Origin: Kineosporiaceae bacterium
GTDB lineage: Bacteria > Actinomycetota > Actinomycetes > Actinomycetales > Angustibacteraceae
Direction: 5' to 3'
Assembly (NCBI GenBank): GCA_027345905.1
Contig: DAIETC010000040.1
Location: 1-28,138, forward strand
DNA: 28,138 nt
Shown: positions 4,866 to 28,138 of the stretch, piece after piece
Layout of the letters: each line of letters starts with the position of its first letter
Position numbering within the stretch: the stretch's first letter is position 1
Made by a program: the position numbers and the translations under genes
The notes under the pieces: generated by a model
Seen by the model: the letters and a program-made list of their open reading frames with translations, nothing else
Databases searched by the model: none
What the model was told of the DNA's origin: nothing

Positions 4866-5756
4866 TCAGGAGGCAGCGAGGAATGACGTGAAGCGGATCG
4901 CCAGGCGGTCGCGGTCGGGTCGCTCGGCCTTTCTGTCAGGCACGGTCAGGCTCTTGTCGTGCATGCCCTTGAGGCCATGCTCAAGCATCGGACCGTCGAT
5001 CTCATCGAGCAGCCGCTGGTTGATGTGCACCGTGTAACCGGGCGAGATTCCCAGCAGGTTCCGGTCGTAGGCGGCGTGGTGGATCTTGCACAAGCTCAAC
5101 CCGTTGGTCACGAGCGGGTCGCCGGCGCCCAAGGTGTCGCCAATGATGTGCGCGGCGTCCAGCAGGTCGCCATGGCGCAGGGTGCAGACGGCGCATCGCG
5201 TCTGGTAGGCGTGGATGACCCGAGCGCGAAACTCCGGCTGGTGCAGCCGCTGCTGGACGAGCCGCTCGGCGTAACGTCGTTCAAGCGGTGACAGATCGAC
5301 GGAGTTAGCGAGAAACCTCAGGTTCTCGTCGAGGGCGATAAGAAATCGGCGCCGCGGCGCGTCGTCGAACACTGCATAGACCGGCATAACCGGCAGGTAC
5401 CTGCCCGGGCCTAGTTTGCGAAGCAAGATGAGGGGCAGCTGCTGATAGATGGCGGCCCGCAGCTTGGCGTTGTCCCCGTCGAGCGACCCGGCTCGGTAGG
5501 CATAGTGGAACAGTCCGTCGACGACCTCGCTGTCGTCGTATGGGCCTGTCGGTGAGCTCACGATGGACAACGTGGCAGCCAGGTCTTGTGGGTTCCAGAT
5601 GCCGCGAGAGGTGTCGCGAACCCGGCGCACCTGGCCGCCGCCGATGTCCAGCGCATCGAGTTGGCGGTGGGACACCTCGCCTCCGCTGCGAAGCGCGGCC
5701 TCAGCAAGAGCATCCATGATGCGCAGCCGCAGTCGGCGCTCGTCAGCCAGGTTCAC
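4866..5756 (-). CDS. HNH endonuclease with N-terminal SRA-like domain (candidate modification-dependent, type IV restriction enzyme), 296 aa
   Basis: C-terminal RQPEFR-like segment (HQPEFRARVIHAY), CAVC, DAAHII, NGLSLCKIHHAAYD. N-terminal RGI...LSIV..GPYDD...HYAY...DNAKL...LPLILLR resembles the SRA pattern. No methyltransferase nearby. Confidence 0.8.
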   Translation of the reverse strand: MNLADERRLRLRIMDALAEAALRSGGEVSHRQLDALDIGGGQVRRVRDTSRGIWNPQDLAATLSIVSSPTGPYDDSEVVDGLFHYAYRAGSLDGDNAKLRAAIYQQLPLILLRKLGPGRYLPVMPVYAVFDDAPRRRFLIALDENLRFLANSVDLSPLERRYAERLVQQRLHQPEFRARVIHAYQTRCAVCTLRHGDLLDAAHIIGDTLGAGDPLVTNGLSLCKIHHAAYDRNLLGISPGYTVHINQRLLDEIDGPMLEHGLKGMHDKSLTVPDRKAERPDRDRLAIRFTSFLAAS

Positions 5757-25278: not shown

Positions 25279-26922
25279 ATGACTCGCACCAGCTCCGACG
25301 CGGTGGTGGTCGGCGGCGGCCACCACGGACTGGTCGCTGCGTGCGTGCTGGCGGACGCCGGCTGGGACGTCGTCGTCCTGGAGGGTGCGGCCGACGTCGG
25401 GGGGGCCGTGCGCTCGGCACCCGGGCGGGCCGGGTTCGTCGTCGACCGGTTCAGCGCGTTCTACCCGCTGGCGGCCGCCTCGCCGGTGCTGCGCGACCTC
25501 GACCTGGGCGCGCACGGCCTGCAGTGGGCGCACGCACCCACCGTCGTGGCCCACCCGCACGGGGTGGACGACGAGCTGGGAGCGGTTCTGTACCGCGATC
25601 CCGAGCGGACGGCGCAGGCACTGGCCGCGCAGTCGCCGGCCGACGCGCAGACCTGGCTCACCCTCGTCGAGCAGTGGCAGCGGATTCGCGACCCGCTGCT
25701 GGACGCCCTTCTGACAGCCTGGCCGCCGGTGGCGCCGGCAGCGCGGCTGCTGGCCCGGCTGGGCAGCGCAGATGCGCTGCGGCTGGCGCGCTTCCTCACC
25801 CTGTCGGCCAGCCGGATGGGCGAGGAGCTGTTCGAGGGTGAGCTGGGCCGGCGCCTGATCGCGGGCAACGCGATGCACGCCGACGCCCCCATCGACGGGG
25901 TGGTCAGCGGCACCTTCGGCTGGCTGCTGGCGATGCTGGGACAGGACGTCGGATTCCCCGTGCCGCGAGGAGGCGCCGGCGAGCTCGCCCAGGCGTTGCG
26001 CCGCCGGGCCGAGGCCGCCGGGGCGCAGGTGCTCACCCGGGACCCGGTGTCGGCCATCGTCGTGAGCGGACGCCGGGCGGTGGGCGTGCGCACGGCGGCC
26101 GGGCACGAGGTGGCAGCCCGGCGCGCCGTCCTGGCCGACGTGTCCGCGCCCGCGTTGTACGAGCAGCTGCTGCCTTCCGGGCTGGTGCCGAGGCGGTTGT
26201 ACGAGGATCTGCGGCGCTTCGACTGGGACCTGGGGACGGTGAAGGTCGACTACGCGCTCGCCGGGCCGGTGCCGTGGCGCGCGGCCGGGGCGCACGGCGC
26301 GGGCACGGTGCACGTCGGTGCCGACCTGGACGAGCGCGGGCGCCCGATCGACGCTCTGCAGGGGTTGGTGCGCTGGAACGCCGACCTGCGCAGCCGCCGC
26401 GTCCCGCGCGTGCCGTTCGGGCTGGTCGGTCAGATGACGACGGCGGACCCGTCGCGGTCACCGGCCGGGACCGAGAGCCTGTGGGCCTACACCCACGTTC
26501 CCAAGGGCATGGGCGAGGACGCGGTGGCCGACCAGCTGGCCGCCAACCTTGAGCAGGTGCTCGAGCGGCACGCTCCCGGCTTCACCGATCTGGTCCTGGA
26601 GCGCGTCGTCCAGCGACCCAGCGGGCTGCAGAGCGAGGACGCCAACCTGATCGGGGGAGCGGTCAACGGCGGCACCTCCCAGCTGCACCAGCAGCTGGTG
26701 TTCCGCCCGACGCCGGGGCTCGGGGGGTCCAGGACCGTGGTGGAACGGCTCTACCTGGCCAGTGCCGCCATCCACCCCGGCGGGGGCGTGCATGGGGCGT
26801 GCGGGTTCCTTGCGGCCCGCTCGGCGTTGCGCGACGCCATGCCGGTGCTCGGCGGCCTGCGCCGGCGGGCCGGTTCGGCGTTGCTGGACCGGGTCTACCG
26901 GGCGCCGCGCTCGGCGAGGTAG
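25279..26922 (+). CDS. FAD-dependent oxidoreductase of the phytoene desaturase family, about 547 aa
   Basis: VVVGGGHHGLVAA Rossmann motif, LEGAADVGG, FPVPRGGAGEL, NLIGGAVNGG, LYLASAAIHPGGGVHGACG; start ATG 25279. Confidence 0.9.
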   Translation: MTRTSSDAVVVGGGHHGLVAACVLADAGWDVVVLEGAADVGGAVRSAPGRAGFVVDRFSAFYPLAAASPVLRDLDLGAHGLQWAHAPTVVAHPHGVDDELGAVLYRDPERTAQALAAQSPADAQTWLTLVEQWQRIRDPLLDALLTAWPPVAPAARLLARLGSADALRLARFLTLSASRMGEELFEGELGRRLIAGNAMHADAPIDGVVSGTFGWLLAMLGQDVGFPVPRGGAGELAQALRRRAEAAGAQVLTRDPVSAIVVSGRRAVGVRTAAGHEVAARRAVLADVSAPALYEQLLPSGLVPRRLYEDLRRFDWDLGTVKVDYALAGPVPWRAAGAHGAGTVHVGADLDERGRPIDALQGLVRWNADLRSRRVPRVPFGLVGQMTTADPSRSPAGTESLWAYTHVPKGMGEDAVADQLAANLEQVLERHAPGFTDLVLERVVQRPSGLQSEDANLIGGAVNGGTSQLHQQLVFRPTPGLGGSRTVVERLYLASAAIHPGGGVHGACGFLAARSALRDAMPVLGGLRRRAGSALLDRVYRAPRSAR

Positions 26923-27380
26923 GCGAGGCGTCGCAGGCTCTCGCGGTTGCGTGGCGCGATCACCAGCTGGCGCAGGGGCTTGGGAACCAAGCGGCTGGGG
27001 CCGTGCGTGGCGTCCTCGATCATCGTCACGGTGCAGCCTTCGGGCGCGGGGTCGATCTGCAGCACGACCCGGGCCTCACCGACGGGGCGCCCGCGCGCCT
27101 GCAGCACCAACCGGCGTCCGGGCTCTGACTCGAGCACCTCGGTCTCGTCGTCCAGGAGCAGCGGCCAGTTGCCGACCGAGTGGTGGATGCGGCTGCCGAC
27201 CGCCGGCCAGGCGCCTTCGACGACCCGGATCCTGGAGGTCCCCACGACCCAGGAGGCGTACAGCCAGCCATCGGCCAGGACGGACCAGACCTGATCGGGG
27301 GTGGCCGTCGTCGTGCGGCTGGTCTGCGCGCTGCCCGCAGGTGCTCGCGCACCGAACTCATCGGTTGCTTCGGTGCTCAT
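26895..27380 (-). CDS. SRPBCC (START-like / polyketide cyclase) protein, 161 aa
   Basis: ATPDQVWSVLADGWLYASWVVG, WPAVGSRIHHSVG, EARV...GCTVTMIEDA, RNRESLRRL; convergent 28-nt overlap with the oxidoreductase. Confidence 0.88.
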   Translation of the reverse strand: MSTEATDEFGARAPAGSAQTSRTTTATPDQVWSVLADGWLYASWVVGTSRIRVVEGAWPAVGSRIHHSVGNWPLLLDDETEVLESEPGRRLVLQARGRPVGEARVVLQIDPAPEGCTVTMIEDATHGPSRLVPKPLRQLVIAPRNRESLRRLAYLAERGAR

Positions 27381-28137
27381 CGACGCAGGATACGGACGTC
27401 AGGGCCAGCGCGCCCGCCGACGAGACCGGCTGCGCCCACGGGTGGGCGGACAGCAGCTGGGGTGCCCGGTTGGTCGCGAGCGGGGACGCCTGAGCGACAG
27501 CTGCCATGTCGAGTGCCATGTCGACTGCCAGGTCGAGCGCGCCCAGACCGGGCGGGGGCGGCACCTGCGCGTACACCGCCGTGATCGCGGTAGCCAACCG
27601 GGCGCGCTCTGCGTCGGGCAGGCTCCCTTGGCGCCAACGCTCGTAGTCGCCGTGCGTCTGGACCGTTGCCTCCCAGCTGGCCGGGGTGTGCACCTGCACC
27701 TCGACCAGCCGTCCCGTGCGCCCGTCGGCGAACGTCAGGTTCAGTCCCCGGTAGCGCGGCCCGCCCCAGAAGTCCTTGGCCTGCACCAGGGTCAGCTGCT
27801 GTCTGTGGAGCGCGGGGATGACATCAAGGACGGCGCCGGCGTAGCGCTGCGGGTCGGCGAGCAGCGTGTAACGCACCGTGTCGTTGACCTGCGGCACGAC
27901 GGTCTCGATCATGGCGCCGGGCTGGCCCAGCCGCTCGCTGACCTTGCGGTACAGCGACTCGCGGCTCTTCACGACGTGCTCGAGCCCCTGCAGACGGACG
28001 TCGAGGGAGCCGGTCGCTTGCTGCACCCGTGGCGTGAGGTCGCGCTGGGCCCATCGTGCGTCGCGCGCCAGCGCCGCGGTCAGCAGGTGTTGGGTGGCGC
28101 TGAGCCGGACGTCGGCCCCGCGGCGGCCGTACGGGCG
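27358..28137 (-). CDS. RelA/SpoT-like nucleotide 3'-pyrophosphokinase domain protein (Tas1/Apk2-like, candidate (p)ppApp synthetase); 5'-truncated
   Basis: Frame is open to the window edge. ...AQRDLTPRV...LQGLEHVVKSRESLYRKV...VNDTVRYT...KDFW...YRGLNLTF...VEVQVHTPASW...HGDYERWR matches the GLExRxKS/ESLxRK, NDxxRYT, KNxW, YxGxN, ExQxHT, HxxYE motif series of that family. Confidence 0.75.
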   Translation of the reverse strand, partial: RPYGRRGADVRLSATQHLLTAALARDARWAQRDLTPRVQQATGSLDVRLQGLEHVVKSRESLYRKVSERLGQPGAMIETVVPQVNDTVRYTLLADPQRYAGAVLDVIPALHRQQLTLVQAKDFWGGPRYRGLNLTFADGRTGRLVEVQVHTPASWEATVQTHGDYERWRQGSLPDAERARLATAITAVYAQVPPPPGLGALDLAVDMALDMAAVAQASPLATNRAPQLLSAHPWAQPVSSAGALALTSVSCVDEHRSNR

Positions 28138-28138
28138 C

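Follow-up and report, generated by a model that had tools for sequence, protein, structure and literature searches.

Where a RelA/SpoT-like alarmone synthetase gene runs off the end of a contig and no obvious immunity gene adjoins it, does it encode an exported enzyme or a cytoplasmic one, and does its nearest neighbour protect the producer? The question is raised by the last open reading frame (ORF) in a 28,138-nucleotide (nt) stretch of DNA from a Kineosporiaceae bacterium (contig DAIETC010000040.1 of assembly GCA_027345905.1), hereafter the window, which is the entire contig C14 of a 62%-complete, ~70% GC actinomycete metagenome-assembled genome (MAG). Our answer, reached by comparative analysis, is that the window probably ends inside an intact gene for a 576-amino-acid (aa) exported alarmone synthetase (EAS) of the type associated with type VII secretion systems (T7SS), that its SYNTH enzyme is likely exported, and that the SRPBCC gene overlapping its 3' end is probably not a dedicated immunity gene; both activity and export are predictions.

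The SYNTH domain and the recovered N-terminus

Because the window comprises all of contig C14, the N-terminus of the EAS lies outside it: the ORF runs off the contig end, as the initial annotation had stated. The GC content at third codon positions (GC3) of this ORF is 0.89, equal to that of real genes of the 70% GC contig. Both motifs on which it had been called an alarmone synthetase, VNDTVRYT and VEVQVHT, are encoded on the minus strand (Table 1; residue i of the window ORF is residue i+317 of the full-length protein).

Taken alone, the window ORF gives an insignificant match to the Pfam RelA_SpoT model (E 0.17). A phmmer search of Protein Data Bank (PDB) sequences returned one strong match, 8VX3 (E 4e-22; ~33% identity across roughly 190 residues), and among NCBIfam models the C-terminal ~190 positions of the XopAD/skwp effector model were matched (E 6e-23). 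The structure 8VX3 (entry name 'SaSAS') is that of SaEAS (Salbus254_1145), an exported alarmone synthetase from Streptomyces albidoflavus to which the classical extracellular 'ATP nucleotide 3'-pyrophosphokinase' activity is due (Ahmad et al., mBio 2025, PMC12691689). An exhaustive phmmer search of 1.8 billion representatives yielded 2,564 relatives (784 at E<=1e-10), and in a 70-sequence alignment K57, D86, R89, Y129, E146, Q148, H150 and P195 are invariant. An AlphaFold2 (AF2) model built from the 70-sequence alignment reached a predicted local distance difference test score (pLDDT) of 87.3 and a predicted template modelling score (pTM) of 0.82; it was used in place of a single-sequence model, which was dropped (pLDDT 54). 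When the model was searched with Foldseek, the four chains of 8VX3 came first (E 4e-15, template modelling (TM) score 0.78), followed by the small alarmone synthetases RelP and RelQ, Tas1 (6OX6), CapRel, SpoT and Rel. A profile of the 70 homologues finds SaEAS at E 2e-70 versus only E 4e-4 for Tas1.

The active site can be compared residue by residue. In SaEAS, D121 was mutated to Ala for inactivation, and R124, K154, N169, E182 and Q184 are ATP-site residues (PMC12691689). These six positions align with D86, R89, Q119, N133, E146 and Q148: five of the six are identical, and the sixth, K154, aligns with Q119, two positions before a basic residue (K/R121) that lies on the same strand and is conserved in the clade. 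Across 19 related loci, K57, D86, R89, N133, E146, Q148 and H150 are kept in every orthologue. As judged from sequence and model, the domain is a RelA/SpoT SYNTH fold with a complete active site (D403, R406, N450, E463 and Q465 in full-length numbering), and its activity is predicted. Beyond the fold, a clade-specific tail extends past the end of SaEAS in the alignment; it is loosely kept (ATNRPPQLLS..HP) in the 12 closest homologues.

These results place the domain in the SYNTH fold, and not in an unrelated nucleotidyltransferase family, by the structural comparison that the initial annotation had recommended. They also bear out the kinship it had drawn between a small RelA/SpoT-like pyrophosphokinase and Tas1, Apk2 and the Streptomyces ATP nucleotide 3'-pyrophosphokinases, since the nearest characterised relative, SaEAS, is that Streptomyces enzyme. 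The label 'Tas1/Apk2-like' is apt for the fold, which is shared with Tas1, but as a statement of relationship it gives way to SaEAS, which is much closer.

The same searches bear on the alternative that the domain pyrophosphorylates the 3'-CCA end of tRNA, as do FaRel2, PhRel and CapRel, and is not a nucleotide pyrophosphokinase. The SYNTH fold is common to both kinds of enzyme, and CapRel is among the fold matches (rank 25, E 9e-5), but sequence and profile searches of the PDB detect only SaEAS and Tas1, both nucleotide-specific, the TM score is 0.78 to SaEAS versus 0.32 to CapRel, and the characterised EAS enzymes act on nucleotides (PMC12691689): a tRNA substrate is thus highly improbable.

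The N-terminal portion of the gene was recovered through a 29-nt overlap between the ends of contigs C14 and C16 (one mismatch), which joins the ORF in frame to 326 N-terminal codons. Such overlaps are rare (~6 contig pairs in the assembly have any), and the 20-mer of this one is unique. The ORF on C16 (2..979, minus strand) ends ...RPSGRRGAD and that of the window starts RPYGRRGAD. The join is proven by P0271, a protein of 576 aa whose gene runs without a break on a 27-kb contig from an independent assembly (L034): residues 318-576 are 100% identical to the window ORF, residues 1-326 match the C16 piece at 325 of 326 positions, and the length is exactly that expected from the join (326 + 259 - 9 = 576). 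Orthologues are 570-630 aa long and alike in architecture. With the N-terminal portion in hand and P0271 unbroken, the gene is seen to be intact and the window to hold its toxin-type C-terminal tip; the reading of the ORF as a pseudogene was rejected, since L034 and orthologues carry the gene in one piece.

The closest relative (82% identical), on a Logan contig (L007:1-802), differs in that the N-terminal part of its EAS is split over two frames near base 397, by a frameshift or an assembly error, and for this reason it was called as only 375 aa.

The N-terminus encoded on C16 (326 aa) scores 43 bits on PF21725, the 'putative T7SS secretion signal domain' (cut-off 27), and the domain is present also on P0271 and on 18 of the 19 other full-length homologues in the same search. 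A WxG motif lies at residues 53-55; neither a signal peptide nor a transmembrane segment was found in the full-length protein, and the N-terminal 330 residues have no sequence match in the PDB. These residues resemble the trafficking modules of T7SS_signal/WXG100_2 polymorphic toxins of actinomycetes and of LXG polymorphic toxins of firmicutes, whose fused tips elsewhere include TNT, RNase, protease and deamidase domains. The layout of the protein is therefore a WXG100-like T7SS_signal domain (residues 1-~115), a helical linker of ~200 residues, the SYNTH domain (~330-530) and a disordered tail (the last ~45). The upstream sequence, which the initial annotation had advised retrieving, thus encodes a WXG100-like protein and, after it, the T7SS secretion-signal domain of the EAS, in keeping with its suggestion of a secreted or polymorphic toxin tip.

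The upstream partner and the downstream neighbour

Six nt upstream of the EAS gene lies a 102-aa ORF with a weak likeness to EspC/WXG100 (E 0.013); annotation of its orthologues gives weak matches to DUF6317 or EspC. Comparison of 17 related loci from metagenomes and reference genomes shows one gene order throughout: PAC2 on the minus strand, then the WXG-like gene and the EAS gene on the plus strand, and then a variable gene (SRPBCC, SDR, luciferase-like, or none). The WXG-like gene was found by tblastn in 15 of the 17, separated from the EAS gene by a gap or overlap of 1-8 nt. The two form a conserved, translationally coupled two-gene unit beside PAC2 in most genomes of the family. The initial annotation had termed the synthetase an orphan: this stands in so far as no dedicated immunity gene adjoins it, but the gene is one half of a conserved unit with its WXG-like neighbour upstream.

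On the PAC2 strand, between PAC2 and the WXG-like gene, there is a small ORF of 46-57 aa with the motif ANPRRLRxGRDGxPLP; by tblastn almost every related locus has it, C16 of the window's genome being an exception. Around the operon, no intrinsic terminator and no sigma-70-like promoter of note were found. Upstream of it no PafBC-type damage promoter was found with a pattern modelled on the mycobacterial motif. No RNA dataset is listed for the locus, and its DNA occurs chiefly in a mine-drainage metagenome, which probably is the source sample.

In the window the gene at the 3' end of the EAS is the SRPBCC (Polyketide_cyc2) neighbour that had already been noted, and it overlaps, in convergent orientation and by 28 nt, a gene for an FAD-dependent amine-oxidase/phytoene-desaturase-like protein (Table 1). 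The SRPBCC family is very large (2,870 matches at E<=1e-5), and the protein encoded here shares 60-70% identity with proteins from Nocardioides, Rhodococcus, Kineosporia, Mobilicoccus and Gephyromycinifex: it is far more conserved than the EAS, its would-be co-evolving partner, which falls to 36-55% within one family. In Gephyromycinifex the SRPBCC orthologue again converges on and overlaps that same oxidase gene; in Nocardioides the two genes run in one direction, 13 nt apart; and at neither locus is there an EAS. Pairing of SRPBCC and amine oxidase across distant actinomycete genera suggests a shared, uncharacterised function.

Gain and loss follow the same pattern. In L034 the SDR and APP1 genes lie just past the amine oxidase, and in all six genomes of genus g2 both SRPBCC and oxidase are absent and the EAS gene runs directly into SDR...APP1; the two genes are thus present or absent as one unit. 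Paralogues of SRPBCC elsewhere in the g2 genomes are only 46-54% identical. The SRPBCC gene can also be lost alone: the metagenomic relative L006 carries a clean 378-nt (126-codon) in-frame deletion of its core (5079-5155 versus L010:2519-2896), while its flanking EAS and oxidase genes are 87-92% identical to those of L010 and the EAS active site is intact. In the complete genome G015 no SRPBCC match was found at E<=1e-20, though the EAS active site is intact there too.

Against this background we weighed the possibility that SRPBCC, where present, is the cognate immunity protein or antidote, binding the SYNTH domain or sequestering its nucleotide product in a ligand pocket, with lineages that lack it relying on something else. 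Wherever SRPBCC occurs it begins before the EAS gene ends, the overlap being 11-68 nt; the adjacency is old (genera g1, g4, g5 and g7, down to 39% EAS identity), SRPBCC proteins are small ligand binders, and one member of the family weakly matches the Rv0910 toxin-antitoxin model (26 bits versus a cut-off of 100, a score on which the gene was rejected as an 'Rv0910-type' toxin of a toxin-antitoxin pair). Yet its conservation across distant genera while the EAS diverges, its pairing with the oxidase, and no EAS alongside, in two checked genomes of such genera, its joint gain and loss with that gene, and its deletion in L006 and absence from the matches in G015 beside intact synthetases all speak the other way, and a role in immunity is unlikely. 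A predicted complex of the SYNTH domain with SRPBCC, run without controls, gave an ipSAE of 0.00 and no verdict; it is not used as evidence either way. The SRPBCC gene is probably a positional bystander whose real partner is the amine oxidase. Across the syntenic loci compared, the EAS gene has no constant downstream neighbour that could serve as a dedicated immunity gene, which upholds the initial annotation's view that none adjoins it and that the neighbour is 'an ordinary SRPBCC gene': SRPBCC tracks the amine oxidase, not the EAS.

Table 1. Positions and strands of the features discussed; coordinates are those of the window unless a locus is named.
Feature	Coordinates	Strand	Remarks
EAS, C-terminal part (259 codons + stop)	27358..28137	-	ORF; 5' end open at window edge
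SYNTH (RelA/SpoT-like pyrophosphokinase) core, window residues 14-215	27493..28098	-	AF2 pLDDT >90
VNDTVRYT motif with D86, R89 (full-length D403, R406)	27865..27888	-	From translation
VEVQVHT motif with E146, Q148, H150 (full-length E463, Q465, H467)	27685..27705	-	From translation
C-terminal tail, window residues 216-259	27361..27492	-	Clade-specific; predicted disordered (pLDDT 47-73)
End overlap with contig C16 (bases 1-29)	28110..28138		29 nt, one mismatch; joins ORF in frame to N-terminal 326 codons
SRPBCC (Polyketide_cyc2), 161 aa	26895..27380	-	Pfam E 8e-13; ATG overlaps EAS 3' end by 23 nt
FAD-dependent amine-oxidase/phytoene-desaturase-like gene	25279..26922	+	Pfam Amino_oxidase E 7e-17; 547 aa in L034
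SRPBCC + oxidase pair	window 25279-27380; L031:5001-7201; L032:5001-7055
Small ANPRRLRxGRDGxPLP ORF	L006:2777-2917; L016:3290-3430; L018:1334-1480; L019:692-865	-	Conserved motif
EccC-like ATPase + S8 subtilase	G000:C209:9936-16880 (L035:4037-10981)		Near WhiB and PdtaS-type histidine kinase genes

Distribution, divergence and export

The distribution of the EAS was assessed in 61 related genomes. It is present in 11 of the 14 other genomes of the window's family (by genus: g2 6/6, g4 3/3, g5 1/1, g7 1/1, g3 0/1, g6 0/2), mostly in single copy and always beside PAC2, and in just one of 47 genomes across 23 other families of the order. Its position in the clade is fixed between PAC2 and the SDR/APP1 genes. 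Presence throughout the family at one locus indicates that the gene is vertically inherited and is not part of a strain-variable island. A test for polymorphism was negative: all 17 syntenic orthologues, from five genera, share the SYNTH tip and its catalytic residues.

Two contigs of one MAG with 7% contamination (L008 and L009) each carry an EAS-SRPBCC locus, with EAS proteins 54-56% identical to that of the window; strain heterogeneity, not true duplication, is the probable cause.

Rates of divergence were compared as median identities to the proteins of the window's genome, from the tables of related loci. The operon diverges faster than its flanks: medians are 47% for the WXG-like protein and 42% and 48% for the N- and C-terminal parts of the EAS, versus 69% for PAC2, 79% for the amine oxidase, 74% for SDR and 66% for SRPBCC (that is, 42-48% versus 66-79%).

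The window's own genome encodes a 1,505-aa EccC-like ATPase (a forkhead-associated (FHA) domain and three FtsK/SpoIIIE domains) directly next to an S8 subtilase of 808 aa that includes a PA domain. The ATPase scores 351 bits on the EccC model, where the FtsK of this genome scores 106; 13 of the 14 other family genomes have an EccC-like gene, and all five relatives searched for both have EccC-like and true WXG100 genes, the two being adjacent in one. The FHA-FtsK3 ATPase and the subtilase are a candidate for a minimal T7SS-like export module, with no EccB detected. WXG100 (PF06013) was not found in the window's genome; since that genome is 62% complete, the lack of EccB and WXG100 there is uninformative.

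Several points weigh against the reading of the EAS as an exported enzyme with no dedicated immunity gene. EccB (PF05108) was found neither in the window's 62%-complete genome nor in five larger relatives, the EccC-like proteins (281-367 bits) fall below the TIGR03924 equivalog cut-off of 509, and their genes are unlinked to the EAS locus: an export machine is plausible but atypical, or only T7SS-like. Conservation by vertical descent at one locus throughout a family is unusual for polymorphic toxins. The overlap of SRPBCC start and EAS stop described above holds at all loci with SRPBCC, down to 39% EAS identity, and such an overlap is the usual geometry of toxin and immunity genes. Finally, T7SS are generally thought to export folded substrates, so that an active enzyme without an immunity gene should endanger its producer.

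Some of these points would fit a protein that stays at home, that is, a cytoplasmic, tightly regulated alarmone synthetase acting in stress signalling or in anti-phage abortive infection, its N-terminal helices serving as an autoinhibitory or sensory element as in CapRel. Such an enzyme would call for no immunity gene, and a single-copy gene passed on vertically, found in 11 of the 14 family genomes next to PAC2 in a housekeeping setting, unlinked to secretion genes and with EccB not found, is what would be expected of it. Against it, the N-terminus scores above the PF21725 cut-off and carries a WxG motif, almost all loci have a coupled WXG100/EspC-like gene upstream, the same N-terminal module carries TNT, RNase, deamidase and protease toxin tips elsewhere, the SYNTH domain is nearest to the secreted SaEAS, with CapRel just a distant fold match, and the operon diverges faster than its flanks. 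Taken together, these make a cytoplasmic role improbable.

Under the preferred reading, that of export, events may be pictured as follows. The N-terminal domain and the WXG-like partner would bring the protein to an EccC-type ATPase. The SYNTH domain, to go by the biochemistry of SaEAS, AaEAS and Tas1, would move the beta,gamma-pyrophosphate of ATP onto the 3'-OH of GTP/GDP and/or ATP/ADP, yielding (p)ppGpp and/or (p)ppApp at a rate sufficient to deplete the pools of purine nucleotides. It would act outside the producer's cytoplasm, either as a toxin in a neighbouring cell or extracellularly like SaEAS. The SRPBCC gene would be co-transcribed by position and belong functionally with the convergent amine oxidase, and protection of the producer would not be encoded at the locus. 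A search for alarmone hydrolases turned up none of the small kind, only a single HD_4 (long Rel) gene each in the window's genome and in four of five relatives; the fifth has it in two pieces. In AaEAS, ~120 residues upstream of the SYNTH domain fold with it (PMC12691689). Possibilities for self-protection include autoinhibition by the ~200-residue linker, masking by the WXG-like partner and low expression.

A different layout is seen in another clade. On L036, a WXG100-type EAS (P0086, 36% identical to that of the window) is followed 32 nt downstream by a gene for a 320-aa Rce1-like/CPBP membrane protein (L036:2969-3931). Proteins of the Rce1/CPBP family are often annotated as self-immunity proteins, and this one is a candidate immunity protein for the P0086 clade; other clades may follow the classical layout.

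Relation to characterised synthetases and significance

The EAS class, as defined by Ahmad et al., includes 85 sequences with WXG/LXG T7SS domains together with XopAD (type III secretion), MuF, DUF4157 and Rhs/PAAR fusions (PMC12691689), and the XopAD and MuF matches of the window's domain follow from this membership. SaEAS resembles the window EAS in its SYNTH fold and in its active-site D, R, N, E and Q, and neither has a dedicated immunity gene. SaEAS is nonetheless a different kind of protein, of ~250 aa with a Sec signal peptide, whereas the window EAS has 576 aa, a T7SS_signal domain, no signal peptide and a WXG-like partner; in the window EAS, moreover, K154 is replaced by Gln, with a Lys two residues on, and there is an extra tail of ~45 aa.

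The sole characterised EAS of T7SS type is AaEAS (WP_005154424.1) of Amycolatopsis azurea, which makes (p)ppGpp only and kills Escherichia coli from the cytoplasm; its gene lies downstream of a gene for a targeting factor and upstream of a small putative immunity ORF (PMC12691689). By published description, AaEAS and the 85 WXG/LXG-linked sequences are like the window EAS in having an N-terminal T7SS domain, a C-terminal SYNTH domain and a small gene upstream, in the same phylum. The clade differs in two respects: AaEAS and the Streptomyces 'cluster B' homologues are reported to be followed by a small putative immunity ORF, which the clade lacks, and 'cluster B' genes adjoin structural genes of a T7SS, whereas the clade is fixed beside PAC2, family-wide and in single copy.

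Other toxic synthetases are further removed. Tas1/Apk1 of Pseudomonas aeruginosa (6OX6) shares the SYNTH fold and ATP-site residues, and growth inhibition through runaway alarmone synthesis is a likely common logic, but the relationship is distant (profile E 4e-4, Foldseek rank 9, 18% identity) and the window EAS, with its T7SS_signal domain, has neither the type VI delivery of Tas1 (Rhs/PAAR group, PMC12691689) nor an adjacent immunity gene such as Tis1. The prophage adenosine 3'-pyrophosphokinases (Apk2) likewise mount a SYNTH toxin tip on a delivery module, but have a MuF domain, a prophage context and an immunity gene, all of which the window EAS lacks. The toxSAS enzymes (FaRel, FaRel2, PhRel, CapRel) are small SYNTH enzymes that are toxic when unrestrained; they differ in being cytoplasmic, in having an adjacent or fused antitoxin and, in several cases, in modifying tRNA, and at the EAS locus neither an antitoxin nor a small alarmone hydrolase was found. 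As to products, SaEAS forms both kinds of alarmone, whereas AaEAS is confined to (p)ppGpp (PMC12691689) and Tas1 to (p)ppApp; so far as its sequence goes, the window EAS may form (p)ppGpp or (p)ppApp, and the latter is not a given.

In a further set of proteins (P0289-P0294) this SYNTH domain is fused to ADP-ribosyltransferase (PF03496/PF01129) or MuF (PF04233; P0289) domains or, in Micromonospora, forms part of ~1,350-aa toxins that have WXG100_2 and glutamine-deamidase domains. These fusions are multi-warhead polymorphic toxins.

The EAS class was defined in late 2025, and one T7SS-linked member, AaEAS, has been tested so far; to it the locus adds a well-delimited clade. Since the class is already known (PMC12691689), what is new is a modest twist: a core gene, family-wide, without a dedicated immunity gene. 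For annotation it carries a caution, that a downstream gene in start-stop overlap, here SRPBCC, is not necessarily an immunity gene. It also sharpens the question of how a producer tolerates a presumably folded T7SS substrate that can turn over ~100,000 nucleotides per minute, and raises the further one of whether such exported alarmone synthetases are always weapons. A tentative answer is that the gene of this clade, a core gene in single copy that is inherited vertically next to the PAC2/Pup-proteasome region without any immunity gene, may encode not an arms-race toxin but a secreted enzyme whose role is communal or physiological (for example, the making of extracellular alarmones, as by SaEAS), which autoinhibition through the linker or the WXG-like partner would render harmless to its producer.

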